A DNA stretch of 64,000 nt, taken from IMG/VR virus record IMGVR_UViG_3300037851_000570, positions 1 to 64,000 of that record; one strand, written 5' to 3'. The stretch's first letter is position 1. Every line of letters begins with the position of its first letter. Under the pieces are notes generated by a model. That model ran no database searches and was not told where the DNA came from. It saw only the letters and a list, made by a program, of their open reading frames with translations. The translations under genes and the position numbers were made by a program. Below are positions 43,072-59,287 of the stretch, piece after piece. The DNA comes from a virus.

Positions 43072-46000
43072 CGCGCTGTTGAAGTTGCCCGAGATATCCC
43101 AGTTGCCAGCAGTTGCCTGGTGCTTCATGAGATAGCGGGTTGCGCCACTCGGTGGGGTGTAGAGATGGATGTCGTACGCAACTCCTGTGGTCGCCCCGCC
43201 GTTGACATTCTGGATCTGGATACCGTAACCACGCCCATCAGAGCCTGCTGTGGCCCCAACGTTGTTGATGTTGATTCCAAAAGCGCTGCCGCTGGTGTTC
43301 CGGGCAATGATCATGCCGACGTAGAGACCAGCCGCATTCGAGTTCCCTTGGCAGTCGTAAACGTAATACCCGTAGCTGTTGGTGGAATAGGTCGAGCTGG
43401 GCCCCTTTCCAATGTAGAAGAACGCGGCGCCATAAGAGCCTGAGGTCCCAAAAACGGATTTACCCTCAAGAACCGTTGCGTAGGCCCCCATTGCCACGCC
43501 GTACGAGTTGATATCGTGGCCTTGCCAATAGATGGCTCGGTAGTTCCACCCAGCGCTGGTCGACTGGTCCGGACGAATGAATATGGCGCCGTAGGTCCCA
43601 GCACTTCCGCTTCCGCTGTATTTCGTTTTGATTTGAATTGCGTTCGCGTAGGTGAAGTCGGTAGGCCCGCCTCCTCCATTTGCATATGCGTTCAGATTGA
43701 TGTCGAGGCCTGAAAAGTTGGTGACAGTGAAATCGTATCCGCCGTCTGTCGACATCGTCGCGTTGATGCGCTGCGCGGTGATCTCGTCGAAGACAGTATT
43801 GTCGTCCATCGTTGCATGGCGATCACACTCGATGAACAGCCCAACGCATGAGCCCGTGTTCGGAGCCACGATGTTGGCGTATCCCATTTGGATATGGCCG
43901 GCGTAGACAACCGAACCCGGGAACATGACCTGCTCATTACGACTCAAAAAGAAATACGAGTTCAACGGATCCCCAGAAGTAGATCCGGGGCCAATGCACA
44001 CCGCCTCCCACTCTCCGCTGGACACCCCAGGCACCAGACAGATGTCTCCGTGCTCTCCGTTGTACGGAGAGTCGTAGGGGCCATAGTTGGTGATGAAGAG
44101 CTTGCCGTTGCCGCGGTTCGACAAGTAGGTGTTGCCGTTCGCGCCACCCTGGCGGAGCAAACGAAGGCTATAGGTCGTGTACGTACTGTTCGTAACCAGG
44201 TCGAGGTACGACAGCGCGTCGGTCGTCTGCCGGCCGCCAATGCGGAGAAGACTCTCTGATCCAGCCGTCTCGTTGGCGATACGAGCCGCGTTGTTGACGT
44301 CCAGCGTGTAGCTAGAGTTGAACGCGACATCCTTTGAGGTGAACCCAACAGCCAGACGGCCCGAGTCGGTATCGACAACAACAGGATAGAGAGAGTTTCC
44401 GGAGTCCAAGTAGAAGTTGCCACCGGACTGGATGCCGAACAGCAGCTCCTCAGCGGCCGTGGTCGACCGCAGTCGCAGCATATTGCCGTAGGTCTTGAGA
44501 ATGTTGATCGTCGAGTCGGTAGTTGAGGTCTGGTTCTGGAAAGTCGTGTTGGCACCGGCCGACAAATCGAACTCGACGTCGGTGTTGAAAGCCTCATCTT
44601 GGAACTGAAACTTCCTGGTCCCGGTGGTCGACAGAGCCAAACGCGGAACCCACGCTGCCCCGTCGAAGTACTCGAAGACGTCTCTCGTCAAAAGGCCGGT
44701 GGTTGCGTCGACCCCCATCACAAGCCGGTACCGAGGAGAACCAATTCCGTCCACCACACCACTGGTGTGCTCTGAGCCTCCTGGTCGCCACACCATAACG
44801 GCTGTGTCACGCCCGTAGAGGGCCCCCCACATGTCGGTCGTGTAGCCGTCGGCTTTCACCATCAGTGGGGCGAACTGGGCATTAGCGTCCCGACCGCTGC
44901 CACCCACCAAAAGATCACTGCCAATCCAGTTGACTGTGTCAGACCCATTCAACGCGGTTGAAAGACCCGTAAAGCTGCTCGTTGTCAGCGTCGTAGGGTC
45001 CACTGAAGCCGCTGTCCACCCCGCTCCCGTGTCGATGAAAGTGTTCTTGGATGGTCCGCTGTCGATTGGAAAGACCTGCCAGTACCACGTCGTTTCGCCG
45101 TCTTTCTTGCGGAAGAGTGCCCAAGCGCCTCCGGCCGTGTGACCTTGGTAGGTGCTCCAGCGGATCTTCACGATCCGAGTATTGGAGGTGGCGATGACTG
45201 CTGGGTATTCGTCCGAGCTTGGGCAGTAACCACCCTTCGCATCCCGCATGGCGACCCGATACCGGTATGTGCCGGACGGAAGAGTACTACCGTACGTCAC
45301 AACCGATGCCACCAACGATGTGCTCTTCCCCTCAAAAGCAAAGGTCCCTGCTGTCGGTAGTGTGACGTGGTACAACGGGTAGCTGTTTGCCACATCTCCG
45401 AAGCTCGCGTAGCCACCTCCTGACAAAGCAAACAGGTTGTCGGTGTCGGAGTAGTTCCGCAGCCTGACCTTGATGTCCGTTACAGAATCGGTGGGGCCAT
45501 TCCGAACGGTAATAGTCTCGTCGTCGAGACCCGGTTCCATGTTAATGCGGTCCGGCCGGATGACGGTGTGCCGGCCAGACTCGCTGCTGTGCTCGTTCCA
45601 GAAGAGATTGAAGATGTTCTCGAGGTTGTTGTCGCGGTCTCCGTAGAGATAGTCCGTGATGGTCGTCGCCGACGGGCCGATGATCGCCAAGATGGCCTTT
45701 TGGACGTTCTCGTCGAGCTCCTGGTTGTACCGGACTCCCGAGCCAACAAGCGCCACCGGGTCATCGGTCGCGTCACGAAGGTTGCTCATGCCCAGATAAA
45801 CGACTTTGATCGGCTGACTCGGGCCCGGGATGGCGCCGTTAGGGAATGCCTTCAGCTGAATCCAGGGGTTCTCCCAGAACTTACCGTCCGTCGTGACCTC
45901 AATGTCGCCCAGGTAGCCGCCGATATCGGGATTGAGGTAGACCGGCCCGAAGTCCTCGGAGGCTAGCTCCAGGGTCTCTTTGTCGATGATGGCCGTAACC

Positions 46001-47325
46001 CGATAGAACCCGTTGTTGCCGTACGGGTCATCGGGAGCCGCCGAAGACCACTCAACCAAGTCCCCTTCACGCACCGGATTGGCCGACAGGAAGTTGGCGC
46101 CGCTGCAGAATACCCGATTGTTCTTCTCGATCCTCGTGATTGCAATCGAGGCGTGCTTCACTCCTTTGAGGTACTCGACTCGCTGCGCTCCCACCTGTTC
46201 GGACGGCTTGTCGTAAATGCCATCGACGAGACAGCGGACCGTCAAGACTTGTTTCACCGACGCCGTGCGCGCCGTTTCGTTGATCTCGTACTTGGCCCCG
46301 GTAGTTGGGTCGACCGGGTTGACGATGACCTCGGTCGCACTGTGGTATGTAATGACCTTCAGGAGCTTGTTGTTCAGCGGTGACACTAGGTCGGTGCCCT
46401 TGATGTAGTAGTCCCCCGTCCCATGCGCAGGAAGGAACGGCCCGCTGGCACATGTCACCTTCTGGTACTTCTTGTCGGAATCCCAGGCGAAGACGTAGTT
46501 GGAGTACGCCGTGCCAGCAACCTCGATCTCATTCTCCTTCATGAGCTCATTGCCGTCGGCGTCGAGAATCGCAAACCACTTCTCCAACACCGCGGTGCCG
46601 GGGCCCGATACGTCGCCGGTGTAGACCCAGCCAGAGAGTTGGATGCCCTCAGGATCTGGAGACCGGACCGTATAGTTGACGTCGTTCTCGACCCGGACGG
46701 CCACACGCTTCTTGTCGAGCAAGAACCCAGCCCGATCGCTGTTGATGCCAAGCTGGTAGGTCATCCGGTTGAACACTTGGGACTCGAAGGGCTCGCCCTC
46801 CATCCACGACAGTTGGCCAGGGTTTGCAACCTGCCGGTCTGGGTCGATGTGCTGCGCTTGGCGGATCTGGCCGCCACGAGCTTCGGTCTTGGCAAACAGC
46901 CCGAGCTCCACTAGGACACTGGTCCCTGAGGCCGGCAGCGTCTCGATCCTCAAGTAGCTCGACGCCCCTGCCCTAGGGCTGGTGAGCCGCAAGAAGCCGT
47001 TGTCCTTAGAGGCAACGACCTCGTTCATGCAGGCCCCAGAGTTGATACGGGTCACCACCTCATCGAGGGTCCAAGGGTCTGGGTCCACAAACGAGATGGT
47101 TCGCTGCACCGGAGCGCCGCCGCCCGAGGGGTCGATCCACACATAGAAGGACTTGCCGCTGAGATTGAAGCCAGCAGGGGTTTCGCGCTGCACACCCAGG
47201 ATGGTGGCTCGGGGGTCGAGTGTTCTGGGAAGGACGTAGGGGGTGCCACCCGAGCTGTACGGAGGGAGAATGGGCCAGGAGCCCATCAGGGTGCCAACAT
47301 CTACATGTCCGAACGGTGCTGGCAT
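42769..47325 (-). CDS. tail fibre / tailspike-like protein with C-terminal intramolecular chaperone (S74-like) domain (1518 aa)
   Basis: The N-terminal ~600 aa are paralogous to the 1267-aa fibre. The C-terminus, SSRDHKENIRELDYDEAKSVFLSLTPSVYNYK...FIAEDAPDLVATWD...LYEEVETLKAQVAALQEA, matches the self-cleaving chaperone domain pattern (Ser...Lys dyad context, then a terminal coiled coil). Confidence 0.8.
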   Translation of the reverse strand: MPAPFGHVDVGTLMGSWPILPPYSSGGTPYVLPRTLDPRATILGVQRETPAGFNLSGKSFYVWIDPSGGGAPVQRTISFVDPDPWTLDEVVTRINSGACMNEVVASKDNGFLRLTSPRAGASSYLRIETLPASGTSVLVELGLFAKTEARGGQIRQAQHIDPDRQVANPGQLSWMEGEPFESQVFNRMTYQLGINSDRAGFLLDKKRVAVRVENDVNYTVRSPDPEGIQLSGWVYTGDVSGPGTAVLEKWFAILDADGNELMKENEIEVAGTAYSNYVFAWDSDKKYQKVTCASGPFLPAHGTGDYYIKGTDLVSPLNNKLLKVITYHSATEVIVNPVDPTTGAKYEINETARTASVKQVLTVRCLVDGIYDKPSEQVGAQRVEYLKGVKHASIAITRIEKNNRVFCSGANFLSANPVREGDLVEWSSAAPDDPYGNNGFYRVTAIIDKETLELASEDFGPVYLNPDIGGYLGDIEVTTDGKFWENPWIQLKAFPNGAIPGPSQPIKVVYLGMSNLRDATDDPVALVGSGVRYNQELDENVQKAILAIIGPSATTITDYLYGDRDNNLENIFNLFWNEHSSESGRHTVIRPDRINMEPGLDDETITVRNGPTDSVTDIKVRLRNYSDTDNLFALSGGGYASFGDVANSYPLYHVTLPTAGTFAFEGKSTSLVASVVTYGSTLPSGTYRYRVAMRDAKGGYCPSSDEYPAVIATSNTRIVKIRWSTYQGHTAGGAWALFRKKDGETTWYWQVFPIDSGPSKNTFIDTGAGWTAASVDPTTLTTSSFTGLSTALNGSDTVNWIGSDLLVGGSGRDANAQFAPLMVKADGYTTDMWGALYGRDTAVMVWRPGGSEHTSGVVDGIGSPRYRLVMGVDATTGLLTRDVFEYFDGAAWVPRLALSTTGTRKFQFQDEAFNTDVEFDLSAGANTTFQNQTSTTDSTINILKTYGNMLRLRSTTAAEELLFGIQSGGNFYLDSGNSLYPVVVDTDSGRLAVGFTSKDVAFNSSYTLDVNNAARIANETAGSESLLRIGGRQTTDALSYLDLVTNSTYTTYSLRLLRQGGANGNTYLSNRGNGKLFITNYGPYDSPYNGEHGDICLVPGVSSGEWEAVCIGPGSTSGDPLNSYFFLSRNEQVMFPGSVVYAGHIQMGYANIVAPNTGSCVGLFIECDRHATMDDNTVFDEITAQRINATMSTDGGYDFTVTNFSGLDINLNAYANGGGGPTDFTYANAIQIKTKYSGSGSAGTYGAIFIRPDQSTSAGWNYRAIYWQGHDINSYGVAMGAYATVLEGKSVFGTSGSYGAAFFYIGKGPSSTYSTNSYGYYVYDCQGNSNAAGLYVGMIIARNTSGSAFGININNVGATAGSDGRGYGIQIQNVNGGATTGVAYDIHLYTPPSGATRYLMKHQATAGNWDISGNFNSASSRDHKENIRELDYDEAKSVFLSLTPSVYNYKPEFNPVPAGNWKTDFAGFIAEDAPDLVATWDRKTVAPMPYISVLTKIMQRLYEEVETLKAQVAALQEA

Positions 47326-47334
47326 TCGTGACTC

Positions 47335-47928
47335 CTAGACGAACCGGAACTCCCAACGCACTTCGAGCGTGAAGTCTACCGTTTTCGAGAGCCCATCGAA
47401 AGCCTTGTAGGCGATGACGGCGTTGATGCCCCGCGTCGGATCCAGCATGGTGGCCGCTGGGGCCCCGATGGGGTCGTAGCTCACGTCATCGACCGCGCCG
47501 TTGTTGGCCGGGCTGACGTCTGCATAGAGCGCCGCTTCGGTGATGTTGACCGGGACACCTGCGATCGTGATCTCGGTGGTGCCGAACTCCTTGATGAATC
47601 GGGCTGACGTACTGGTAGGGAACTCAACCGTCTGAATCGGCCGGAGATAGTCGGTTGGAGTGGCCAGGACAGGGGTTGCGAGCTGCGCGACCGTTGAGGC
47701 TTCGAGCTGTGACCCAGTGCCAAGTCCCATCCACCGGACTCGGCGGTTGGTGTACGCGATGTCGGTGCCGCTGATGGTGCTCCACGCGATGAGTCTCGCC
47801 AGCCAGTTCTTGCCGCTGGTCGTGAAGACGTTGTGGCCTTCTCGATGAGAGCCTGGAACCAGCTTTCCGCGCTCTCGCATCAGCAGCCAGATGTTGGATT
47901 CGACCGCGATGTCGTCTCTGATTCTCAT
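47335..47928 (-). CDS. small fibre-associated beta-protein (197 aa), paralog of 47936..48697
   Basis: The ATG at 47928 (GAGGT upstream) lies after the upstream stop at 47936-47938, and the track start at 47967 overlaps it. LLMRERGKLVPGSHREGHNVFTTSGKNWLARLIAW...RVRWMGLGTGSQLE aligns with RLLARERGKIVPGSLREGHNVFTVWGRQWMAYLSAW...RVRWLQLGQGTQLE. Confidence 0.7.
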   Translation of the reverse strand: MRIRDDIAVESNIWLLMRERGKLVPGSHREGHNVFTTSGKNWLARLIAWSTISGTDIAYTNRRVRWMGLGTGSQLEASTVAQLATPVLATPTDYLRPIQTVEFPTSTSARFIKEFGTTEITIAGVPVNITEAALYADVSPANNGAVDDVSYDPIGAPAATMLDPTRGINAVIAYKAFDGLSKTVDFTLEVRWEFRFV

Positions 47929-47935
47929 GAGTACC

Positions 47936-48697
47936 TCACACAAACTTGAAGTCCCATTGGACCTCAAGCTCGAAGTCCGGAGTCTTCACCAGAGGCTCGA
48001 AGGTCTTGTACGCTACCACGGGCAGCGGGTCATCCAAACCAAACGGTCCGACCCCGCTACCAGCCAGACTCCAAGCGACACTGGGGTTGTTGGTATCGTC
48101 TCCCGTCCCGTACGCAGCCTCGAGCTCGACGCTGGTTTCGCTCAGCACTCGACGGATGGCGTAGCTCCCATCGTGGTCGGACCCCGTGATGGCGAGCCGG
48201 TACTGCTCCAGCACGACGAGCATTTGACTGACCCCGGTAACTACCGCGCGGTCGGCCTTCCAATCGATGCTACAAACACCCGCGGGGGCCGGCGCGATAG
48301 CGGCCGAGAGCCCGGCCTCCTGCAAAAGAGCAGAGCTGCCCGGAGAAGTCTCGTCCAGGCTGGCAGAAAAGCGCACGCCGAATTGAAAGGGGAACGAAAC
48401 CGAGACCAGCTTCCCGTAGTACGGAGTCGGGTCCAGTGCCAATGGGCTCACCAAGTTGAGCGCGTCCTTCTCTTCCAACTGGGTGCCCTGCCCGAGCTGT
48501 AGCCACCGAACCCGCAGATCGTGGTGCGGGGTCTCAGTCGGAACCGGGATGAGGTCCGGGTCAGCTATCGACTTCCAGGCAGAGAGGTAGGCCATCCACT
48601 GACGGCCCCATACGGTGAAGACGTTATGGCCCTCCCGCAAAGAGCCTGGCACGATCTTTCCGCGTTCCCGCGCCAGCAGCCGGAAGTTCGCCGTCAT
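47936..48697 (-). CDS. small fibre-associated beta-protein (253 aa), paralog of 47335..47928
   Basis: See above. Both end in a similar F-[ET]-L-E-V-[RQ]-W-[ED]-F-[RK]-F-V C-terminus. Confidence 0.7.
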   Translation of the reverse strand: MTANFRLLARERGKIVPGSLREGHNVFTVWGRQWMAYLSAWKSIADPDLIPVPTETPHHDLRVRWLQLGQGTQLEEKDALNLVSPLALDPTPYYGKLVSVSFPFQFGVRFSASLDETSPGSSALLQEAGLSAAIAPAPAGVCSIDWKADRAVVTGVSQMLVVLEQYRLAITGSDHDGSYAIRRVLSETSVELEAAYGTGDDTNNPSVAWSLAGSGVGPFGLDDPLPVVAYKTFEPLVKTPDFELEVQWDFKFV

Positions 48698-49074
48698 GCG
48701 CTTCTCCGCTGGACGACAAACTTGTAGTCGGCACTGTCGATCGTAAGGGTCTCGTACACGGTCAACGTTGTAGCGCCAACCGCCTCGATTGTCAGCTCTT
48801 TCCCGTCGTTTGCCTCCCCTGTTGCCTCAAGCCGCACCTTGTCACCCTTCCGGACATTCAGCTGCCGGGGGGAGGCCACGGCATCAGCTGGTCCGAGAAA
48901 CGAGTATGCCGTCCCCGAGAAGGAGCCGTGGCGATTCAAGGTGTGGGCGCCCCCGACGACCAGGTAGTTGTTGTTCAGCCCATCGCCTCGTAGGCCGATC
49001 TCAAACCACTCTGTGGGGGCGAGCTCCGAGGCGCGCTCAAAGAAAGAGCGGTGCAGGGTGTGCTCGTAGCTCAT
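48694..49074 (-). CDS. hypothetical structural protein (126 aa)
   Basis: Overlaps both neighbours by 4 nt. It contains one copy of the GD-x-h-x-h...G-x-x-h-x-h motif (RKGDKVRLEATGEANDGKELTIEAVGATTLTVYE) that recurs in the giant proteins. Confidence 0.65.
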   Translation of the reverse strand: MSYEHTLHRSFFERASELAPTEWFEIGLRGDGLNNNYLVVGGAHTLNRHGSFSGTAYSFLGPADAVASPRQLNVRKGDKVRLEATGEANDGKELTIEAVGATTLTVYETLTIDSADYKFVVQRRSA

Positions 49075-52000
49075 GGCACCCCCAGTAGCTTCATGGTGGC
49101 GACCCCCGGTGAGGGGTCAGAGGTGACCGATGGGTTGTCCACAACGACCACACCGCATGAGATGTAGTCGGTGATCAAAAAGATCCCGTCGTTCACCCCA
49201 CCCGGAGAATCCGAGATGCTAAGGTACGTACCGACCATACCCGGGCTGAAGGCATCTCCTACCAGTGACGGAGTCTCACCCGTAATCTGGACCCGGAACG
49301 TCGATGAACCGCCATGGTAGTTCGGCCAAACGTTGTGCCACACCGCGCGCTGCAACCGAGGACGTACGACTCTTCCCGGCACTCCAAAAAGCGCCGACAA
49401 TGCGGGTTTCGTCCCATCCAGTCTCTTGAGCTGAAGCTGCGTCTCGGAGATCTCCAGCGAGTCCGGCAGAACTAGCCAGCCAACCGCGCCGTTGTGGCTG
49501 TCGGCCCCCGTACTGAAAGTGCTGTAGACCTTGAGCGACGTCGCGCTCACAAACCCTGTGACGCGGAAACGGCCGTTGTGGTCAGAGTTGGTCAGCTCCA
49601 AGAACTTCCCGACGTCGTCTACAGTACGGCCCGTAAGACCAGTGACTGTAGCTTCGCTGGTCGCCCAAGTGATGCTGGCAGCCGCGCCCCCGACCTCGAG
49701 ACCGTCGATGACGTATTCCTCCTTCTGGTTCTCCAGCACCAGGTGGTCTCCCGGCATCACGTTGTTGGATTTGAACAAGGCACTGGTGCCAGTCACGAGC
49801 CCGCTGGCCGAAACATCCAGAGTCGCGTAGGCGAGCAGGGTCGCACACTGTCGCCGGATGACCGAAGCGGTAAGCCCGGTGCCATACTCGAACAGGTCTA
49901 CGTCAAGAGCTGGCCCCTGTGTCTCTACGGGCTCCGACAAGGGGGCGGCCCTCAAAAGCTTCAGAACGGTAGGGCTCACGACCTCTTTGATCTCGTAGTT
50001 CACCGGGTTCATGACACCGGCGCCTGGCTGGCCCTGATGGATGTGGAGAAGGTCCCCCTCGATGCGAGAAGGGCCAACAAGGGCCTGCTCGGCACGTACC
50101 AGGGAACCCCAGCCAGACGCTGAGGTTGCCAGAACATCGCTCCCATCATCGCTGGTAGCCAGATCTCGGACCGTCTTCAACACCCGGGTGTGGTAGGGGC
50201 GAGAGTTGAGATGCCACAGCGTCACGCCCTGGTGGTTGTCGTCGGTGGCTCGATTGGTAGCCTCCAGTCCAGTGACGTTGTCGTAGAACTTGAGACGGAT
50301 GGCGCCACCGACCTCGTCCTCGACGCTGATATCGTCTTCCAGGGAGTGCAGAAGAGTGGCGATGACTCGGGTGTAGGTTGGCTTGATGGCCTTCACGAAG
50401 TCCAATGCAAACTGAACGTCGTCTGAATCGAACACCGCGCTGTCGACCACGATTTTGAAGACGAAGTACTTCAGCACCTCCAGACCATAGAGTGACCGCG
50501 TCCACCAGTCCGGGACCTTGACGTAGTCCTGAACGTCAACACCCTTGCAGATCGGCACAAACGCCTCGAGCGTATCGCCGACCGTGTAGGCGACGCCGGT
50601 GGCCGGGTTGATCTCCAGGCCTACGGCCATCGGGTAGAAGTAGATCCTCCGATTCCCGGTGAGCTTCCAGTTGTTGTCCAGGTCCTCTACCAGCACACGC
50701 CCGAAGGAATCCCCGTCGCTGTTGGTGGTGAAGTCCTCCTGGTGCTCGAGGATTAGACCCTTCTCTTCTGTGAAGGGCAGGCCCAACAAAATCTGCATGC
50801 CAAGACGGATGTTGTTGACCGTCGGGCCATTGGCATACGAGAAGATCAGACCTTTGACCGCGCTGAGATATGGAGCCCGAGTCTGCTTCGCATTGAGGTC
50901 ATCCTGCTTCAGGTTGACCAAGCGACCGAAGTTCTCCTCTACTCGGTCCGAGTTGTCCAAGAGCGCGAGCTCGGCCCAGAAGTCCTCCGGAGAATGCGCT
51001 TTCGGGGAGAACAGCCCGCTGACAAACCGTACCATCCCCTCTTCGACCGTGTAGTCCAAGTTCTCGAGCAGAATCGTCGGGGGGTCGGCCGGGGTCTCCT
51101 GAAGAGCTGGCAAGCTCACCAGACTCTTGTCGATGGCCGTCGCACGGTTGTGGATGACCTGCTTAGCCTTCATCGAGAACTTGTAGGGGCCGAAGTTTCG
51201 CTGCGCGAGATTGATGCCTGGTGGAAGGAACGAGATGAAGGTCTCGGCGAATGCCGAGACATCCTGATCCGAGGCCTGGCCGGGCACCAGACGAAGGTCT
51301 TGAACCAGCTGCTTGAACAGGTCTCGCTCGACATCCATCCCCGAACGGTTCCGCTCCACCCAAGAGATCGCTGGGTTTCCGCTGTCGGCCCCAGAAGCCA
51401 AGGGGTTACGAATCGTTACGCTCGTCTCGTCGATGAACGAGAGGATCTTGTAGGTGCCGGGGTTGTCACCGTTGAGAATCTGTAGAGAGCCACCGATGCT
51501 GGTAGGCAGCATACCGGTCAGGCCACTGACCGTCACGACTCCACCGGATGCTACGATGCTGGCCGCGGCGCCCGAGTTGGTCGAGGCCGCCAGATCTTCG
51601 GTCGTGAACTCGAAAGCAAGGCGATCCCCCGCGGCTCCCACGACCCTGGCCCGGAGCTCGGCACTGAGCTTGACGTCGTTGCGGGTAACCTCGAGAACCA
51701 GCACATCCCCTTCCGACACCCCTCGCGCCTGGAATTGCGCGCCTGGCACATGCAGCAAGTGTGAAAGACGCCAAGAGGCCCCGACAACCCCGTCGGGAAG
51801 AGTGGCGTTTCGAAGGAACACTACGGAGTAGGGGCGCCCGATGATGAAGGATTGACTGGTCTCAGCTTGGAAGCTGGGAAGGGGACCACCCGGTGGGTCC
51901 GTTAGGTATGCCACTGCAACTTGGGTCGTCGAGACGCTCTTGACCAAGTAGGTGCCGGCGTTCTCGCCGCTTCGAATGACCAGGCGGTCGCCTGCCTGCA

Positions 52001-52937
52001 CACCATCAGCCACAAAGTCAGTAGGGAGCTCTACCGTGCCGACCGACGACAGAATGTTGGTCCCCAGAGCCGTGTCGCCGTCGTTGTTGGTAGAGAGCAG
52101 CAGGCCTTTGTTGGCAACCCGCTCGATGATGTGGCCGACGCCATCGACGCACAGAAGCCGACCTTTGGCGCCGAAGTTGCCGTTGAGGTTCGTAAAGTCG
52201 GTGCGGTCACCGTCTCCGGGTTGTCCGAGCGGGACGTAGAAGACCGATGTGGCACCAGTCCCAGGCGTCTGGCCGATGTTGCCGGTGCGGCCGTTGGTGC
52301 CGGCGTCAGTCTTGCCGACGATGATGCGCTGGTCCTTGTAGGGCGTGAGGTCCGTACGCATCGACACACGCTGCCAACGGCGCTGCTTGACCGGCTGGAT
52401 AGAGGCCAGGGACTTGTTGAGATCGTGGTCCCACAGCGTCAGGAGCTCCGAGCCGATGAGCTGCAGAACCCCCGACCAGATCGTGGTGATCTTCTCCCGA
52501 TCCTCGACCAGCGCCCAGAAGTCCGAGATGTAGTTCCAGAGAAACTGCGCATCCGGGACGATGTTCTCCCCAACTGGGACCTGGCAGTACTGGATGAAGA
52601 TCGAGGCCGTGACCGGCAGGCTGGCGTACTCGCCATCGTCTACTACGAGCTCGACTACATAGTTGCCGACTTTGTCGGGGATGAACGATACCGCCGACGA
52701 CCGAGGACGAAGAACCTTGAAGCCGGTATCTTCGACGGTGCTGCCGATAGGCACCTGTCGAAAGTTCCAGTAGTAGTTCAGGGGTCGCTTCTCGGGGTCG
52801 TAGCTCTTCCGACCGTCCAGCTGAACGATGGATCCTAAGAGCGCGGTGATGTTGGTGCGGGCCAGAACAGCTACCGGCGACTCGTCGGCAGGGCCGTACG
52901 TGTACGTCGTGAACTTCTGTCCCGATACTGGTGACAT
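49071..52937 (-). CDS. large tail/baseplate-associated protein with N-terminal PKD/Ig-like domain (1288 aa)
   Basis: LDGRKSYDPEKRPLNYYWNFRQVPIGSTVEDTGFKVLRPRSSAVSFIPDKVGNYVVELVVDDGEYAS follows the PKD-domain pattern. There are several copies of the GDxhxhxxGxNxGxYxh motif. Confidence 0.75.
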   Translation of the reverse strand: MSPVSGQKFTTYTYGPADESPVAVLARTNITALLGSIVQLDGRKSYDPEKRPLNYYWNFRQVPIGSTVEDTGFKVLRPRSSAVSFIPDKVGNYVVELVVDDGEYASLPVTASIFIQYCQVPVGENIVPDAQFLWNYISDFWALVEDREKITTIWSGVLQLIGSELLTLWDHDLNKSLASIQPVKQRRWQRVSMRTDLTPYKDQRIIVGKTDAGTNGRTGNIGQTPGTGATSVFYVPLGQPGDGDRTDFTNLNGNFGAKGRLLCVDGVGHIIERVANKGLLLSTNNDGDTALGTNILSSVGTVELPTDFVADGVQAGDRLVIRSGENAGTYLVKSVSTTQVAVAYLTDPPGGPLPSFQAETSQSFIIGRPYSVVFLRNATLPDGVVGASWRLSHLLHVPGAQFQARGVSEGDVLVLEVTRNDVKLSAELRARVVGAAGDRLAFEFTTEDLAASTNSGAAASIVASGGVVTVSGLTGMLPTSIGGSLQILNGDNPGTYKILSFIDETSVTIRNPLASGADSGNPAISWVERNRSGMDVERDLFKQLVQDLRLVPGQASDQDVSAFAETFISFLPPGINLAQRNFGPYKFSMKAKQVIHNRATAIDKSLVSLPALQETPADPPTILLENLDYTVEEGMVRFVSGLFSPKAHSPEDFWAELALLDNSDRVEENFGRLVNLKQDDLNAKQTRAPYLSAVKGLIFSYANGPTVNNIRLGMQILLGLPFTEEKGLILEHQEDFTTNSDGDSFGRVLVEDLDNNWKLTGNRRIYFYPMAVGLEINPATGVAYTVGDTLEAFVPICKGVDVQDYVKVPDWWTRSLYGLEVLKYFVFKIVVDSAVFDSDDVQFALDFVKAIKPTYTRVIATLLHSLEDDISVEDEVGGAIRLKFYDNVTGLEATNRATDDNHQGVTLWHLNSRPYHTRVLKTVRDLATSDDGSDVLATSASGWGSLVRAEQALVGPSRIEGDLLHIHQGQPGAGVMNPVNYEIKEVVSPTVLKLLRAAPLSEPVETQGPALDVDLFEYGTGLTASVIRRQCATLLAYATLDVSASGLVTGTSALFKSNNVMPGDHLVLENQKEEYVIDGLEVGGAAASITWATSEATVTGLTGRTVDDVGKFLELTNSDHNGRFRVTGFVSATSLKVYSTFSTGADSHNGAVGWLVLPDSLEISETQLQLKRLDGTKPALSALFGVPGRVVRPRLQRAVWHNVWPNYHGGSSTFRVQITGETPSLVGDAFSPGMVGTYLSISDSPGGVNDGIFLITDYISCGVVVVDNPSVTSDPSPGVATMKLLGVP

Positions 52938-55900
52938 TAGGTGGTGTCTCCCAACTCTAACAGCACATTCACCGAGTGCTCAACCCGAGCCTTCAGTTCT
53001 TCTTCAGAAAGCGCCGGGAGGAACGAGAAGTCAAACCCTCTCGAGATCGATAGCGACACATGACTCCATTGACTGACGGTCTTGATACTGTCAGCCGCCT
53101 TGTGCCCAAAAACAACTCTTGGAGTTCCCCCGGACGACGGAGCAAAAGAGCAGAGGTCTGTGTTGAGCTCGATGACGGGCCGCACGGAGTCGTCGACAAA
53201 AAGCCGTGTCTTTCCTCCAATCGTCTTGATCATCCGATAGAGGTGGAACATAGACCAGTCCAGGGGAACGAATGTACCCACCGAGCTAGGTACCCCAGAT
53301 CGGATGGCTAGCAAGGACTCCTCGTCATCCGAAGAGAGGGCCAAGAACACAATTTTGCCGTACGGAGGTCCGGCGTCTGCAAAGCATAGTCGGAGCTCGT
53401 TGGTGTCGTCGACAACCGCAACCACCATTCCAGTCAACGAGCGTATCGGGTTTAGCTCTTCGCCTACCTCGTAAGAGACAACCCGAGCTCGAAACTCGAG
53501 AGCAAAACCAGAATCGGCCTGCAGACCGGACGTGTAGTTCTTCCTGATACGGATGCTATCCGCGTCCGTTGTATCGGCCAGCTCAATATACTCGCGGTCC
53601 GGTGACACGGTGGTGGAGCCCGCTCCTTCGGGAACCCAGTCAGCCGGAAGTGGATCGTCTGTAGAGCGAACCATCGAGATGTTGCACGAGTACCGCAGAG
53701 CTGACAGCCGAAGTCGAGCGAGAGCCCCGCCTGGGGTCGCGTTGTGCAGGAACCCGAGCCCTGGTCCTGGGAGGGTCGTCACGGGGAGAGCCGAGTACGC
53801 AACGCTCAAAACGTACTCAGGCTTCAGCCCTTCGCCCAACACCAATCGGTAGAGATCAACTGTGCCGGCTGGGTTAAAGACGATGCGGTAAAAAACCTCA
53901 ACTTCGAAGTTTTGGACGACGGCCGAGTAGGAGTTCAGCAACTCGGGGTGGGCGGAGTCCGCCAAGAGCCCAACGTACTGGGTGCCGGAGTTCGTCTGGA
54001 GGAACCCCAACCGCGTACACCTGTCTCCGTCATCTATGAAGAACTCGACCCCGGAAGACTCCACTCCGCTCGCCAGCTCGAGTGCCTTCACCGAAACCTT
54101 GAAGTCGAAGACCGTGATATTGGGAAGCGCCAACTCCGTTCTCGTAAACCCGATGCTCTTCCCCATCGTGGTGCGGTCGACGACCAGCTGTCCGGCCTCG
54201 AGATGGTAGGCACCACCAACTCCACCCGGAAAGGTGCTGGGTAAAGGCTTCCAAGGCTGCTCGGCCTTCTCGGGCACCGCCGTTGGGAGGTACTCGACCA
54301 AGCTGTCGGTTCGGAGAAACCCAGTAACTCCTCCCGAGAAGAGGCCAGATTCCACAACGCATTCTGTGTAGTTGTAGAAGGCGACAAACTTCCATCGGCT
54401 GATGCTCTGAGAGGTCGTGCCGCCTACATGCCCAAAGAATGCCCAAGGCGTGTTCTCTCGAATCTCCTCAGCTGGAAGATCCGGGAAGTCACCAACCAAA
54501 CCGGAAACCAGAAGCCGGTCCTCAACATCACCATCTCCAGAGCTCACGTAGAGCCGCACTCGATCCCTCGCAGGATCCCACAATAGCTTGTAGGTCAGAT
54601 AGAGGTCATCCCACGGCAAGTCTTTGGCATAGGACAAGTTTGGTGGAGTGGTCACCAGCCGACCAGCGCTCTGGACAACGACACCCGTAGCAAAGAAGTA
54701 CGTTCCACCGTTGTAGAGCTTGACCGATATGCCCTTGTTGCCTGCCATCAGGCCAAAAGCTACACCGGTGAAGCCGTCAGGGGCCGTAGCGACCTCGGAG
54801 GCTTTCAGTTTCAACTTCACTTCCATCATCAGAGGGGACTCGGTTTCGGCTGGGGCCTCGAGCCCACCAAAAAAGTACGTGGCCTCCTGCAATACAATTG
54901 GGAACTCGAGCTTGGAGAGAACCAGTGCCCCGTCGATGTCGATCTCTCGGGTGGCGCCCCGATCTGGAGTAGTTCCACCGAACTCCTCCAGGTAGAAATG
55001 GACATCCTGATAATCTTCAGGACGGGAGCCGCCGTCATAATGACACCGCCCTGTCCCGAAGTACGCTCTCACGGCCGCTCGGTCTATCTCGGCCAACGCC
55101 GCCCTGGCTGAGAACCGGAAAGGCTCCAGGGTCCCAACAGCCGATCCCGGTTGTGGAGTCCTATTGACAGCTTGCGGAGCGTCGCTGACAGCCGCAACAC
55201 CACCCCAAGTCATAGCTGTCAATGCGGTAGTTGGGGTGATTCGCTGTGCCTCTGCTTCTGCACCCAGCTCAATCAAACTGTCGGCATCGGCCGTTCTTAC
55301 AACTTCTGGCTCGGCATCAGCATCAAACGAGAACTCCGTGTCGGCGGCAACATTCTCGAAAGTCGCAGCCTTGAGCTCTGTACCCAACAGCATCAACAGC
55401 GTCTGTGAATAGATGGGAGACTGCGGGTAGCCGGGCTCGTTCTTCTGATCAAAGCTGTACGACGGGCTGGCCACCGAAACAGGGGCTAGTCCCGAGAAGA
55501 TGTACGGGTAGTGATTGGATCCGCTGGTGCCGTAACCGGCACCATAGATCGTGCTGTATCGGTCGATTCCCGCTACAGTGTCACGAATCCGGTGGTAAGC
55601 GAAGGTCCCACCAAACCGCGCACGGGAACGAGCGAAGTAGAACAGGTATTCATTAACCTCCGGCGAGACAGCCGGAGCTCCTGATTCCAGAGTATTCCAC
55701 GTTCCAGTGTTGAAAAACTGTTGGTCTCCCGCTGTAAGCTCTGCTTTCCAAGTCTTCAGGCTACTGAGGCAGATCACAAAGATGCTGGACCGAGAGATCG
55801 TCGGGTAGCTCGCTGAGTCTTTCCTAGCGCCTTCGATCCCAAAAGTCGTGGATACCGCCGAGGGGGCAGCCAAGTATTTCGCTACGCAAAGGTGCGTACT

Positions 55901-58897
55901 TTGCCCCACTGTGAGGCCGTCGAAGTACACGGTTTCGGCTTCGACATCTACGTCGTCCCTCTGCAGTCGAACACGACTTTCTCCCGCATTCTGCCCGGAG
56001 TCATAGAGTGTCAGACTGGCCAGAACCAAGTAGTCGCTGGTCCCATCCGGTGTGAACGTCAACGAGGTATGACGTAGGAAAGTCGGGTGCAGAGGGCTCG
56101 ACGCTGGAGTTGTATTTTCAGCGTATAGCCACCCTTTGTTGCTTTCGGGAAACTCGGTCGGGTAGGCGTCGAGGTCGATGGCGACAAGTCGGATGTCGGT
56201 GACGTAAGTACTGATTGACGAGATAGCGTGCTTCTGCCCATAGAGCTGCAGCCCGTCGCCGGACCCTGTTCCTGTAATCCGTGCCATCATGAAAGCAGGG
56301 ACCAGGCTTGTGGAGTCGTGAGACTCTTGGCTGGTAGTGACCGCAGCACCGTTGAATCGCAGTTGGGTCGCACAATACTCTGAGGTCTTACCGAAGACCG
56401 CCTGAGAAAAAGTCGCCAAGACAAGATGACGGTGCCCGTTTGCAAGCTTGAAGCCGGGAATCGTTGCCAACAACAACCATGAGGGGGAGTTCGGGAACGC
56501 GCTCGAGGCCCCATTCGTCTGAGTTTGAGCGTAGGGTAGGAACTTTCTTGTTTGAGCAGTGTACTTGACCTCGGTTGAAACAGCCGCCAGGACCCCGTAG
56601 TAGATGTACTGCGGGGAGCTCCCCGAGGTATTGCGCTGGATTTGAAGTTCGTAGCTATCGGACCCTTTTGCCACGTCCAACGTTGCGATTGCCGGACCAT
56701 AGAAGTCGCCGATGTCCGATGTGTTGCTAAACTGCTGGGTATCGAGAACAGTAGACGCCGGGCCTCGAAGCAGCCTCTTGTTGAGAAGATCTCCACTGGT
56801 GACCCAGTAGTACGCCTGTATGAAGTTGAAGACTAGGAAGTTGTCTCCTACCGACGCCAAAGAAGGTGTCACCGAGCCGATCGACTGCCAATCGGTACTT
56901 GGAGTAGTGATCACGGGAGAGCCATTGTAGAGGGCTGCGTGCTTTACGAAAGTGTCGAGCCGAATAACAATGACCCGAGAGTAATCGATGAAGCCGCTTG
57001 ACCCGGCCCCCAAGTACCCGTCGTAACTTATTCTGGTGGGGGTTGGAATTGGTCTTTTGAGAGTCCACATCTCCAGATTGACGTACTTTTCATTCCCATC
57101 GGCTTGGTGGACGCGATAGGTCAACATTCCTCCCGTATCGAAACCGATCCCGAAATAAGCATGCGTTAAGAGAGCTATGTTTCGGGCGCGACCAACCCCG
57201 ATTATCAAGTAGTCGCTCACTCCATCGGGAGTAAACGTCAGAGAGCAGTGCGGAGTTCTAGTAGTGTTTAGAGTAACTGCTGTGTCGTTTGATGCCCACT
57301 GCCACCCATTCACACTATCTTGCGGAAAATCAGTGCCGTTCACATCAAGGTCGATTGCCACGACCCTGAGATTCCGAATCGCTCCCATGACCGAACTGGA
57401 GTACGCCGACAGAGTAATTCCAGTGCCCGACCCTGTACCGGTAATGCGCTCCATGCAATGAGAGGCCGTGTACTCGGCGTGGCCCAGCTTCATGGTCTGT
57501 TCAGTAGCCAGCAAGGTCGATCCGTTGAAGTTGAGCCTCCAGGACAAGAGCCCAGCATTCGATTGCTTAATCTCGGCGTAGGCCAACACCAAGTAGCGGT
57601 GTCCGTCAATCAGTTTGTAGCCCGGGATCGTGACGTAATCGACGTATGAAGTCGTCATCGTGCCGCCGCTGCCGGTGGCTGTGATGACGGGCAGGTAGGT
57701 CTTGGCCTGCGGGGCGTACTCAACCTCGGCCTTTAGAGCGACCAAGGTGTGCTGGTAGAAGTACGCCGGCTCATTCGTGATAGCGTCACGCTTGAACTGA
57801 AGCTCGTAGCTGTTGGCCCCATTGGCGGTGTCAAGCGTACAGAAGAATGGTCCGTGGTTGTCCCAGGTGTAGCGGTGCCAGCAGGATGACCCGATGACTG
57901 CTTGGGTGGCACCAGGATTCCGTAGAACCTGTTCACTGATGGTTCCCAGCTCACTTTGCCAGTAGTTCGCTCGGATATGCGAGAAGATCAAGAACTGGTC
58001 TCCTGCAACTGCAGCAGGAGATGGTGTGATAGACGTGGCAGACTGCCAGGACGTGCCGGTCGTGTACGCCGGGTTGTTCGTTGTTCCTGCTCGTTTGGTG
58101 AAGGTGTCGAGCCGAAGAACCAGGACGTGTGCCCCGGTCAACGCAACGCTGGATGAGGCACTTACCCGCGCCGTCAACGAGACGACCGTTGGAGACTTGG
58201 GGAAGCGGATCACCTTGGGAGAAATGAGCGTGATGTAGTCGTCGCAGCTGTAAGCTGTCCCGAAAACTTGGTAGTAGTCCGAGTTGGATGGAGCCCCGTC
58301 CACCCCGACACCAAGGTAGACCACAGGATTGTCGCTCGCCCCAGGATGAACCGTTCCGCTGACAATAACCAGGTAGTCGCCGCCGTCCGGGGTGAACTGT
58401 GGTGTAGAGGCGTAGGAGGCCCACGAAGTCGTGAGGGTTTGGCTGCCGTCGTTCGCAGCCCACAACCAACCGTTCGCGCTCTGTTGTGGAAGATCGGTGT
58501 TGTTGACATCAAGGTCAACGGCAACGATTCGAAGATTGCGGATCTGCCCTCCAGCTAAAGACGGGCAATAGGCACCAAGCTGAAGTCCAGACCCGGAGCC
58601 GCTCGGGAGCTGATAGAGCTCATGTGTCTGGCAAGAGAGAAACCGCCCGTAGGAGTCGAAGTTGTACGGACGGTTGACCTGCGGCAGTTCGACCCCGTTG
58701 TACCGGACGCTGGCCCGCACCGTGTAGTCCGAACCTCCGTAGGTCCCTACCGACTGCAACTCGCAGTATGACAAGATCAGGTAGCGATGCCCCACCGTGA
58801 ACGAGGTATCCGGGATCGTCAGATACGGAGTCCACGAGGTTCCGGGCGAGTAGGTGCCGGCATCGGATGCCTGGTGGACTGGAAGGGTTGTCGCCAT
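52937..58897 (-). CDS. giant adhesin-like fibre protein (1986 aa): nine tandem beta-sandwich-like domains followed by LamG-like jelly-roll region
   Basis: Aa 1-1178 are three ~390-aa super-repeats, each made of three ~130-aa subdomains. The C-terminal 800 aa contain three segments ending in the W/F-h-h...LY/LF-V-D-type pattern (RVRLYVSSGDG; TVDLYRLVLGEG; KTRLFVDDSVRPV). Confidence 0.8.
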   Translation of the reverse strand: MATTLPVHQASDAGTYSPGTSWTPYLTIPDTSFTVGHRYLILSYCELQSVGTYGGSDYTVRASVRYNGVELPQVNRPYNFDSYGRFLSCQTHELYQLPSGSGSGLQLGAYCPSLAGGQIRNLRIVAVDLDVNNTDLPQQSANGWLWAANDGSQTLTTSWASYASTPQFTPDGGDYLVIVSGTVHPGASDNPVVYLGVGVDGAPSNSDYYQVFGTAYSCDDYITLISPKVIRFPKSPTVVSLTARVSASSSVALTGAHVLVLRLDTFTKRAGTTNNPAYTTGTSWQSATSITPSPAAVAGDQFLIFSHIRANYWQSELGTISEQVLRNPGATQAVIGSSCWHRYTWDNHGPFFCTLDTANGANSYELQFKRDAITNEPAYFYQHTLVALKAEVEYAPQAKTYLPVITATGSGGTMTTSYVDYVTIPGYKLIDGHRYLVLAYAEIKQSNAGLLSWRLNFNGSTLLATEQTMKLGHAEYTASHCMERITGTGSGTGITLSAYSSSVMGAIRNLRVVAIDLDVNGTDFPQDSVNGWQWASNDTAVTLNTTRTPHCSLTFTPDGVSDYLIIGVGRARNIALLTHAYFGIGFDTGGMLTYRVHQADGNEKYVNLEMWTLKRPIPTPTRISYDGYLGAGSSGFIDYSRVIVIRLDTFVKHAALYNGSPVITTPSTDWQSIGSVTPSLASVGDNFLVFNFIQAYYWVTSGDLLNKRLLRGPASTVLDTQQFSNTSDIGDFYGPAIATLDVAKGSDSYELQIQRNTSGSSPQYIYYGVLAAVSTEVKYTAQTRKFLPYAQTQTNGASSAFPNSPSWLLLATIPGFKLANGHRHLVLATFSQAVFGKTSEYCATQLRFNGAAVTTSQESHDSTSLVPAFMMARITGTGSGDGLQLYGQKHAISSISTYVTDIRLVAIDLDAYPTEFPESNKGWLYAENTTPASSPLHPTFLRHTSLTFTPDGTSDYLVLASLTLYDSGQNAGESRVRLQRDDVDVEAETVYFDGLTVGQSTHLCVAKYLAAPSAVSTTFGIEGARKDSASYPTISRSSIFVICLSSLKTWKAELTAGDQQFFNTGTWNTLESGAPAVSPEVNEYLFYFARSRARFGGTFAYHRIRDTVAGIDRYSTIYGAGYGTSGSNHYPYIFSGLAPVSVASPSYSFDQKNEPGYPQSPIYSQTLLMLLGTELKAATFENVAADTEFSFDADAEPEVVRTADADSLIELGAEAEAQRITPTTALTAMTWGGVAAVSDAPQAVNRTPQPGSAVGTLEPFRFSARAALAEIDRAAVRAYFGTGRCHYDGGSRPEDYQDVHFYLEEFGGTTPDRGATREIDIDGALVLSKLEFPIVLQEATYFFGGLEAPAETESPLMMEVKLKLKASEVATAPDGFTGVAFGLMAGNKGISVKLYNGGTYFFATGVVVQSAGRLVTTPPNLSYAKDLPWDDLYLTYKLLWDPARDRVRLYVSSGDGDVEDRLLVSGLVGDFPDLPAEEIRENTPWAFFGHVGGTTSQSISRWKFVAFYNYTECVVESGLFSGGVTGFLRTDSLVEYLPTAVPEKAEQPWKPLPSTFPGGVGGAYHLEAGQLVVDRTTMGKSIGFTRTELALPNITVFDFKVSVKALELASGVESSGVEFFIDDGDRCTRLGFLQTNSGTQYVGLLADSAHPELLNSYSAVVQNFEVEVFYRIVFNPAGTVDLYRLVLGEGLKPEYVLSVAYSALPVTTLPGPGLGFLHNATPGGALARLRLSALRYSCNISMVRSTDDPLPADWVPEGAGSTTVSPDREYIELADTTDADSIRIRKNYTSGLQADSGFALEFRARVVSYEVGEELNPIRSLTGMVVAVVDDTNELRLCFADAGPPYGKIVFLALSSDDEESLLAIRSGVPSSVGTFVPLDWSMFHLYRMIKTIGGKTRLFVDDSVRPVIELNTDLCSFAPSSGGTPRVVFGHKAADSIKTVSQWSHVSLSISRGFDFSFLPALSEEELKARVEHSVNVLLELGDTT
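55364..58897 (-). repeat. protein-level tandem repeat array, 3 x (A-B-C) domains
   Basis: Super-repeat boundaries are about 58897-57713, 57712-56543 and 56542-55364. Anchors: GHRYLILSY / GHRYLVLAY / GHRHLVLAT; RIVAVDLDVNNTD / RVVAIDLDVNGTD / RLVAIDLDAYPTE; QFTPDGGDYLVIV / TFTPDGVSDYLII / TFTPDGTSDYLVL; VLVLRLDTF / VIVIRLDTF. The copies are diverged (roughly 30-40 % identity by eye), so there is no DNA-level repeat. Confidence 0.75.
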
Positions 58898-58900
58898 CGG

Positions 58901-59287
58901 TCAGTCGCAGGTGATGGTCATCTGCCCCGTGGGGATTCGAAGAATGTCTCCCGATTCGATCAGCTTCGAAGGGGTCAGCGTACCGAAGATCACTGGCGTG
59001 GCGCCGTCATACAAGACCCACCACCCCAATGTCCCCCAGCTGCCATTCGCAGTGGGGAACGTGAAGTCGGCACCGTTCGTCTTCGGGCCTCCCAGGGGGG
59101 CATTGGGGAAGTTGGCGGTGTTGTTGGTGATAGACACCCTGGCGTAGCCGCCTCCGCTCGGTTCTGTGATTCCAGAACCATTCTCCTGTGGCTCAGTAGT
59201 CGATGCTGCAAGGCTAAACGAGGCGGGTGTACCGCTGCCGAACAGATTGTCCAGAACCACGGTTTCATATGCGTTGAACAGACTCAT
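58901..59287 (-). CDS. small conserved phage beta-protein adjacent to fibre genes (128 aa)
   Basis: MSLFNAYETVVLDNLFGSGTPASFSLAASTTEPQENGSGITEPSGGGYARVSITNNTANF... has the layout of a small-protein family frequently encoded beside tail-fibre genes. That family link is from memory and has not been searched. GGAGGG RBS. Confidence 0.7.
   Translation of the reverse strand: MSLFNAYETVVLDNLFGSGTPASFSLAASTTEPQENGSGITEPSGGGYARVSITNNTANFPNAPLGGPKTNGADFTFPTANGSWGTLGWWVLYDGATPVIFGTLTPSKLIESGDILRIPTGQMTITCD

Follow-up and report, generated by a model that had tools for sequence, protein, structure and literature searches.

The receptor-binding proteins of phages are commonly portrayed as homotrimers, and the tools for host-range prediction and fibre engineering assume as much. 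TNF/C1q-like trimeric fibre heads, single chains with three jelly rolls and fibres in which gp80 forms beads on a rope are all known. Trimeric jelly-roll knobs, for instance, were described at the tips of the long and short fibres of phage 7-7-1 (PMC12796354). In GP4 Fiber-1 and the homologous whisker proteins of Bas63 and Sf14, dimers are strung "like beads on a string" along an extended rope polypeptide that fills in their incomplete beta-sandwiches, with five dimers per rope in GP4 (PMC12609058). PDB entry 8jou contains ten chains of GP4 gp80, and the gene that follows gp80 in GP4 encodes 325 amino acids (aa) with about ten 20-aa repeats. Here we analyze a 1986-aa protein in which a single-chain version of a trimeric head appears to be coupled to a rope of this kind. 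It is encoded on the minus strand at 52937..58897 of the first 64,000 nucleotides (nt) of the IMG/VR record IMGVR_UViG_3300037851_000570; this whole 64-kb stretch is called the window in the following and is part of an uncultured phage contig of ~202 kb. According to the open reading frame (ORF) list and its translation, the protein comprises three repeated units, each predicted to form a knob, a rope-like linker and a C-terminal module.

With the TNF/C1q-like trimers, including the engineered 4zch, the units share ~130-aa all-beta domains of the jelly-roll type, three of which are predicted to pack as a trimer. They differ from them in that the three domains, of eight strands each, are covalently linked and diverged paralogues in one natural chain, which would give a monomeric knob with non-equivalent faces, and in that they have no Pfam TNF or C1q sequence match. 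Phage fibre-tip knobs are similar in that the unit stands at the terminus of fibre-like proteins. As in GP4 fibre I (8jou) and the collar whiskers of Bas63 and Sf14, a gp80 homologue lies directly upstream and the downstream protein contains 20-aa repeats. However, the GP4-type ropes are small proteins (200-340 aa) in which the rope comes first, whereas the putative rope of the window protein, with 3-4 repeats against ~10 in GP4 and ~20 in the relative P0012, sits behind three 390-aa knobs and before a 745-aa module, and no homologue of the immunoglobulin (Ig)-like collar/adaptor protein was found in the window. Three jelly rolls per chain by internal triplication are also present in the C381 turret protein of STIV (4ind) and in the nepovirus capsid protein (4v5t), but these are capsid or turret blocks of icosahedral shells rather than fibre modules and have no sequence relation to the unit; moreover, the whole-chain superposition of C381 (4ind, 3j31_P) with the first unit is poor (template modelling [TM] score TMq of 0.19). 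Tandem arrays of Ig-like, PKD or carbohydrate-binding module (CBM) domains, such as Hoc-like proteins, resemble the window protein as repeated beta-sandwiches of ~100-130 aa in a giant phage structural protein, but they grow by single domains into extended strings, whereas the family described here grows by whole triplets, each predicted to be one globule. In the family databases and the literature that we searched, we did not find a natural single-chain pseudo-trimer as a fibre module, its tandem triplication or its coupling to a rope fibre.

Repeat hierarchy of the N-terminal region

A first-pass annotation of this DNA had proposed that aa 1-1178 consist of three ~390-aa super-repeats, with boundaries near aa 395 and 785, each made of three related subdomains. 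We regard this three-by-three hierarchy as virtually certain. Alignment with MAFFT placed the boundaries at aa 399/400, 784/785 and about 1182, so that super-repeat 1 (S1, aa 1-399) occupies 57701..58897 on the minus strand, with its domains A, B and C at 58499-58897, 58085-58498 and 57701-58084; super-repeat 2 (S2, aa 400-784) occupies 56546..57700, minus strand, with A at 57335-57700, B at 56933-57334 and C at 56546-56932; and super-repeat 3 (S3, aa 785-1182), the most diverged copy, occupies 55352..56545, minus strand, with A at 56159-56545, B at 55742-56158 and C at 55352-55741. Self-BLAST of the undivided protein returned the identity match only, and the thirds were compared instead. By BLASTP, S1 (here aa 1-395) and S2 are 36.9% identical across 396 aa (E=5.5e-60), S2 and S3 are 41% identical across 160 aa (E=1.9e-27), and S1 and S3 are 26% identical across 337 aa (E=3.7e-15), while none of the three matched the C-terminal 800 aa. 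A hidden Markov model (HMM) of the family unit recovers S2 and S3 with independent E-values (i-E) of 6e-82 and 1.3e-72, respectively. At the DNA level, the remaining similarity (72-78% identity) is confined to the most conserved motifs, at a spacing of 1152-1179 nt which equals the super-repeat period; since only such remnants are left, the duplications must be old.

The ATG at 58897 is backed by the N-terminus MATTLPVHQASDAGTY (MATTLP...), which is near-identical in the homologue P0002. The database gene call for this protein, P0001 (1940 aa), opens 46 codons downstream of this ATG and cuts into domain A (start region 58760-58897), whereas the longer start gives a complete domain A.

Each of the A, B and C subdomains is 122-139 aa long. 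The start motifs quoted in the first-pass annotation (e.g., TSWTPYLTIPDTSFTVGHRYLIL, TSWASYASTPQFTPDGGDYLVIV and TSWQSATSITPSPAAVAGDQFLIF) and the end strands RIVAVDLDV, VLVLRLDTF and LVALKAEVEY are all present in the translation. When only the window protein is considered, with profiles of three sequences each, the similarity among A, B and C is colinear but weak (P=0.003 for A-B, 0.056 for B-C and 0.25 for A-C). Profiles of the three positions cut from a 48-sequence alignment of single units of the family, by comparison, align in register and match each other at 99.3% for A-B (E=2e-20), 98.6% for B-C (E=1e-15) and 97.8% for A-C (E=1e-12). In some relatives the homology can be detected even by plain BLASTP, as in P0031, where all three domain pairs match (E=2e-9 to 2e-11), and in P0069, where domains 1 and 2 (E=9e-12) and domains 2 and 3 (E=3e-9) do; likewise, the HMM of the window B domain matches all three positions in several relatives. 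Within the window protein, each subdomain profile matches solely its own position in every super-repeat, which bears out the proposed order (A-B-C)x3.

Predicted fold of one super-repeat

The structure of S1 (399 aa) was predicted with AlphaFold2 from the 48-sequence alignment, resulting in a mean predicted local distance difference test score (pLDDT) of 88.2 and a predicted TM score (pTM) of 0.91, with a pLDDT of 86-88 for all five models. The model is all-beta and is composed of three consecutive domains of eight strands each with an equal strand-length pattern, and these agree with the jelly-roll beta-sandwiches of about 130-150 aa that characterize the TNF/C1q-like superfamily. Given the profile homology of A, B and C and the full-length homology of S2 and S3 to S1, the idea of nine copies of one fold is supported by this model; among the fold classes that had been considered for them (Ig-like, jelly-roll or carbohydrate-binding), the AlphaFold and Foldseek results point to jelly-roll-type beta-sandwiches which are predicted to pack as a pseudo-trimer.

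In the Foldseek search of PDB, the top matches were both chains of 4zch, an engineered single-chain APRIL-BAFF-BAFF heterotrimer, aligned over ~430 columns with a TMq of 0.52-0.54. It was the sole whole-chain match in PDB; the remaining ones had a TMq of at most 0.27, i.e., they covered one domain, and included Cry toxins, CBM22, reelin, GH101, the VP2 protein of IBDV, the STIV triple jelly-roll protein and the nepovirus coat protein. Membership of the unit in the STIV, nepovirus, IBDV VP2 or Cry-toxin groups was considered and rejected, since the matches to them stay at the single-domain level. Among the viral models of BFVD, the best match was A0A6J5RA88, a 401-aa protein of an uncultured phage (TM score of 0.78), and further whole-chain matches were a 425-aa phage "C1q domain-containing protein" (0.61) and giant-virus proteins of 373-404 aa (0.63-0.64). 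On these models, it is quite likely that each super-repeat is one compact pseudo-trimeric knob, whose three jelly-roll-type domains would be packed like the subunits of a TNF/C1q trimer. The first-pass annotation saw neither this predicted compact knob per triplet nor two features described below, the gp80/rope context and the joining of the array to a C-terminal module which elsewhere has a gene of its own.

Distribution and expansion of the triplet family

With a profile of the three super-repeats, 344 of 1.84 billion cluster representatives (clusters at 50% identity) were matched at E<=1e-3, 57 of them at E<=1e-10. Among the best 150 of the 344, exactly one complete three-domain unit is present in 118, two units in 4 and three units in 2, the latter being the window protein and P0003. 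In the same 150 proteins, 52 consist of units only, while the unit is N-terminal in 68, C-terminal in 11 and internal in 19, so that it is terminal or makes up the whole protein in 131 cases. The units of the family are strongly diverged, with 15-20% identity.

Unit-unit scores are 63-190 bits within the window protein, 275-521 bits within P0003 and P0005 and 675 bits within P0064, compared with 20-80 bits between proteins. As the units of one protein stand far nearer to one another than to units from other proteins, whole triplets must have been duplicated independently several times. In the window protein, S2 scores 190 bits against S1 and the single-unit protein P0002 scores 183 bits against S1, while S3 is the copy nearest to the single-unit protein of a related phage (contig L007). 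The triplet is the ancestral module, ancient and widespread, and was duplicated twice in tandem here, long ago, as indicated by the identity of about 25-37% between the copies. The comparison of repeat number among relatives, which the first-pass annotation had recommended, therefore supports its proposal that a triplet rather than single domains was duplicated, the triplet being the unit in the relatives and the units being closest within one protein. This constitutes a clean case of hierarchical duplication, from a domain to a fixed triplet and from there to tandem arrays, independently in several lineages.

Searches of Pfam, PHROGs and NCBIfam with the 1986-aa protein, its parts and its relatives yielded no model for the unit. 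Sequence searches of PDB with the family profile, with the Gp80-like protein encoded upstream and with a profile of the C-terminal module gave noise only. When 50,697 phage genomes were searched by tblastn with the complete 1986-aa sequence, with P0069 and with P0012, nothing was returned, and a word-index search for homologues of the full-length protein retrieved nothing but itself. All cluster members that we looked up are unnamed metagenomic proteins, and the family is essentially metagenomic. SU10-like, Mu-F/HK97-type and other phages carry its members within their structural modules, and the unit is fused in relatives to Ig, LamG, GH17 and DUF2341 domains. With the family profile, it could become possible to assign hundreds of phage and giant surface proteins that are now "hypothetical". 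On a 58-kb contig which does not look phage-like (L018), the unit was seen at the C-terminus of and inside proteins of 3000-3700 aa rich in He_PIG Ig, beta-helix and Disaggr repeats, encoded by P0014 (5001-14102) and neighbouring genes; the module may also serve cellular giant adhesins.

The Gp80-like neighbour and the rope-like linker

Directly upstream of the 1986-aa gene, a gene at 58901..59287 (minus strand) encodes a 128-aa protein matching Pfam PF23140 ("Podophage GP4 fiber I protein gp80") with E=4.7e-22. Its stop codon and the start codon of the 1986-aa gene are 3 nt apart, the junction at 58895-58903 being TGA-ccg-ATG. Its product is 64% identical to the 130-aa counterpart on L007. 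Of ten gene contexts of the unit family that were examined, five have a Gp80 gene directly upstream, namely the window, L002/P0012, L004/P0004, L007 and L016/P0016, and in these five a region with a 20-aa period follows right behind the unit, with ~20 repeats in P0012 and ~18 in P0016. Conversely, P0035, P0026 and P0069 have neither an upstream Gp80 gene nor a 20-aa-period region.

Repeats of 20 aa were likewise seen in the gene that directly follows the gp80 homologue in all cultured or complete phages that we examined, as in GP4 (L005, 2206-3183), Bcep22 gp61 (L011, 4428-5168), phiM5_18 (L012, 4375-4971), PVJ1_58 (L013, 4402-5427) and the metagenomic phage cta39025 (L014, 4871-6052). These genes are annotated merely as hypothetical, as virion-associated or, wrongly, as "portal". 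In cta39025, the gp80-like protein itself (L014, 4001-4783), annotated as "b-glycanase", is a tandem duplicate of 260 aa with two Gp80 domains, and such a chain would amount to a bead dimer whose two halves are covalently joined.

In the window protein, the corresponding region is a linker at aa 1187-1246 (55160..55339, minus strand), with three 20-aa repeats (TEFSFDADAEPEVVRTADAD / SLIELGAEAEAQRITPTTAL / TAMTWGGVAAVSDAPQAVNR) and a possible fourth from aa 1167. The repeats follow the motif phi-x-phi-(G/D)-(A/G)-x-A, and the autocorrelation of hydrophobicity in the linker peaks at lag 20, as it does in the GP4 rope and in P0012. With a position-specific scoring matrix (PSSM) built solely from the repeats of relatives, aa 1187 is the best site in the protein (21.2 bits versus 6.7 for the best unrelated site) and the second of about 27,000 positions in the long ORFs of the window, and none of 20,000 shuffles reaches its score. 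This pattern is suggestive of a rope segment, an assignment which we deem well motivated, and it is rather likely that the protein belongs to a Gp80/rope-associated virion fibre.

C-terminal module and gene fusion

The remainder of the protein, aa 1241-1986 (52940..55177, minus strand), has homologues in P0152, P0151 and P0153 at 38-48% identity, of which P0152 is a stand-alone protein of 744 aa on a 197-kb contig. No Pfam match was obtained for this module even at E<=10. Foldseek matches of its AlphaFold2 model, predicted from a four-sequence alignment, are uniformly concanavalin-A-like and include legume lectins, the Hc-N domain of botulinum toxin, the LNS domain of neurexin and the lectin domain of Vibrio sialidase. 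It is plausible that the module consists of several lectin domains of the concanavalin-A-like/LamG type. In one relative of the knob family, P0035, the unit is joined to Laminin_G_3/Toxin_R_bind_N domains.

On L007, the gene order is big1 (1639 aa), C-terminal module (744 aa), big2 (1129 aa), Gp80 (130 aa), unit protein (627 aa), a 194-aa protein and a fibre with the S74 domain; the 627-aa unit protein has one unit, rope-like repeats and a small C-terminal domain. In the window, the order is big1 (1415 aa), Gp80 (128 aa), the 1986-aa gene with three units, rope and C-terminal module, big2 (1288 aa), proteins of 253 and 210 aa, the S74 fibre (1518 aa) and a 1267-aa protein. Since the C-terminal module is a separate gene on L007, the synteny with the two related phages L007 and L009 marks the window gene as a fusion of a Gp80-linked unit protein with the C-terminal module, combined with triplication of the unit, and thus as an example of gene fusion within a jumbo-phage fibre cluster.

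Compared with L009, the C-terminal module is 48% identical, versus 73% and 67% for the flanking genes. The GC content is 56.5% in the 1986-aa gene and 56.1% in the repeat array, against 59.8% in the window, and the array is among the lowest 3% of all 3.5-kb windows; in addition, GC at third codon positions (GC3) is 0.657 in the gene versus 0.74-0.79 in the neighbouring genes. The first-pass annotation was right that the gene lies below its surroundings in GC, but its figures of 52-55% against 60-70% overstated the difference. The distinct history at which it hinted is independently suggested by the broken synteny and by a divergence higher than that of the flanking genes. This divergence and the lower GC3 fit a fast-evolving or exchanged host-recognition cassette. 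Horizontal transfer was considered on the basis of GC and not adopted: a mobile fibre module would agree with the lowered GC3 and the interrupted synteny, yet these prove nothing on its origin.

Proposed role and alternative explanations

Taken as a whole, the evidence leads us to consider the 1986-aa protein a probable fibre component in the virion of an uncultured phage of ~200 kb, namely, a monomeric bead-on-rope fibre protein with three pseudo-trimeric adhesin knobs. A rope fibre is built on a single polypeptide and bead dimers, so that a three-chain head could not assemble at its end; three jelly rolls in one chain, i.e., a pseudo-trimer, would remove this trimerization constraint. That the triplet is kept as an indivisible unit and placed at protein termini would then be explained by the suitability of a single-chain pseudo-trimer for rope fibres. 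The three knobs would be terminal heads by which the fibre adheres to polymers of the host surface; their non-equivalent, diverged domains could offer several different binding grooves, and the knobs themselves, being about 25-37% identical, possibly have different specificities. They would be followed by a short stalk, in which about two Gp80-like dimers, supplied by the probably co-transcribed upstream gene, would stiffen the linker of ~60-80 aa, and then by the lectin-like module, which would be a separate virion protein in relatives. That the knobs are receptor-binding elements we rate at slightly below an even chance. More tentative still is the general proposal that the triplet is a natural single-chain trimer of the TNF/C1q type which evolved as the terminal head of non-trimerizing rope fibres, and which would represent a large, hitherto unannotated class of monomeric phage receptor-binding modules with three non-equivalent grooves per knob.

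Several points weigh against this interpretation. The predicted pseudo-threefold packing rests on the pTM and on one moderate Foldseek match (TM of 0.52, root-mean-square deviation of 7.6 A); the values that bear on it are a pTM of 0.91 and a whole-chain TM of 0.52-0.54 with 4zch and 0.61 with the phage C1q-domain model. The Pfam models TNF (PF00229) and C1q (PF00386) had no match in the window protein, in 10 single-unit relatives or in 63 longer relatives. As for the rope, the linker has just 3-4 repeats, and the PSSM is unspecific: tracts rich in Gly, Ala and Ser score too, the rope of GP4 itself merely ties with an Ala/Ser-rich tract, and a Gly/Ser-rich stretch at aa ~973-1032 of the 1267-aa protein (38624-42427, minus strand) outscores the linker, with 25.2 versus 21.2 bits, probably as a compositional effect. 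The similarity of the P0012 repeats to the GP4 rope is not significant (E=1.1), and tblastn with the Ig-like adaptor of GP4 (93 aa) and with Bcep22 gp63 gave nothing better than E=0.05 in the window, which covers 64 kb of a ~202-kb genome, these being fast-diverging proteins. The lectin-like reading of the C-terminal module comes from a poor model with a pLDDT of 51. The repeat hierarchy, the homology of the domains, the distribution of the family, the neighbouring genes and the fusion are shown; fold and packing are predicted, and rope function, virion location and ligand binding are inferred. Finally, variable C-termini behind a conserved N-terminal part are also the classic signature of virion anchoring, not of a receptor-binding head.

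This last point leads to the strongest of the alternatives, namely that the knobs are a virion-proximal anchor or an element contacting the capsid or neck, and that the lectin-like C-terminal module binds the host. We consider it unlikely, though it deserves serious consideration. The unit is the conserved part and is N-terminal in 68 of the 150 best relatives, where it is followed by variable Ig, LamG or glycosidase domains, which is the usual layout of an anchor with a variable receptor-binding part; furthermore, GP4 fibre I points up to the capsid and the Bas63 up-whiskers contact capsid decoration proteins (PMC12609058), and siphophage-like contigs have the pair of Gp80 and unit genes between the capsid and head-tail connector genes. 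However, identities of 15-20% between units would be unusual where a conserved partner must be fitted, the units are found at the extreme C-terminus of 11 giant proteins and on their own in 52 proteins, and three tandem copies of an anchor would have no obvious use. In addition, TNF/C1q-like and jelly-roll knobs on fibre tips typically bind, as in phage 7-7-1.

We find it improbable that the nine domains are independent CBM- or Ig-like beads on a flexible string, with the compact packing an AlphaFold artefact and the triplet period a mere record of duplication history. Below the first match, the Foldseek matches were indeed mostly to single domains (CBM22, Cry toxin, reelin and GH101), and the alignment used for the prediction of S1 held 48 sequences only. 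Nevertheless, a pTM of 0.91 for a 399-aa chain, with all five models at a pLDDT of 86-88, implies a confident inter-domain geometry, and independent BFVD models of distant members or look-alikes superpose over the whole chain with TM scores of 0.61-0.78. The strict conservation of the triplet in 118 of the 150 best matches, with many proteins containing exactly one, would also be unexpected for freely shuffling domains. A classical homotrimeric tail fibre or spike, in which the units of three chains interdigitate and the gp80-like neighbour is functionally unrelated, is highly improbable, for although most phage fibres are trimeric and the nearby 1518-aa gene has a Peptidase_S74 trimerization chaperone, the 1986-aa protein is devoid of coiled coil, beta-helix or S74 chaperone, its unit is predicted to be self-contained, and a Gp80 gene lies 3 nt away and co-occurs with the unit and 20-aa-repeat proteins in five independent contexts.

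If the reading as a monomeric bead-on-rope fibre with three knobs is true, the three diverged knobs together with the lectin-like module could recognize several host surface structures from one polypeptide. At least 344 clusters (at 50% identity) with an apparent single-chain trimer-like head would then break the homotrimer assumption, and the family would add a monomeric architecture to phage receptor-binding proteins and explain how a knob caps gp80 beads-on-rope fibres.

Genome setting

The window encodes a DnaB-like helicase, a second helicase and a family-A DNA polymerase (PolA), the last of which is at most ~31% identical to any protein in 50,697 phage records. A 2058-aa protein at 3972-10148 (minus strand) is matched along its length by several phage "RNA polymerase beta subunit" PHROGs and is, judging from these matches, an RNA polymerase of the multisubunit type with fused subunits, as is typical of jumbo phages.

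The 1986-aa gene is part of a minus-strand run of giant genes, encoding proteins of 1415, 1986, 1288, 1518 and 1267 aa. Because of this run, and because the 1518-aa protein has the Peptidase_S74 fibre chaperone domain at its C-terminus, we consider it a fibre/adhesin cluster. The 1518-aa (42769-47325, minus strand) and 1267-aa proteins have an N-terminal region of ~600 aa in common (35% identity, E=6e-93) and then diverge, so that they resemble a pair of alternative fibres sharing one type of anchor. Two small paralogous genes, encoding 253 aa (47936-48697, minus strand) and 210 aa (47335-47967, minus strand), separate the 1288-aa gene from the 1518-aa gene. They have no family annotation, and their homologues hold the equivalent position on L007 and L009; they may encode fibre assembly or adaptor proteins.

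The 1288-aa protein (49071-52937, minus strand) has a weak PKD match near its N-terminus (E=1e-3, under the Pfam cut-off) and is 67% identical to a 1288-aa protein encoded on L009. At 52937, the TAA of the 1986-aa gene overlaps the ATG of the 1288-aa gene (TAATG). Given this overlap and the 3 nt that separate the TGA of the Gp80-like gene from the next ATG, the Gp80-like, 1986-aa and 1288-aa genes are probably co-translated from one transcript.

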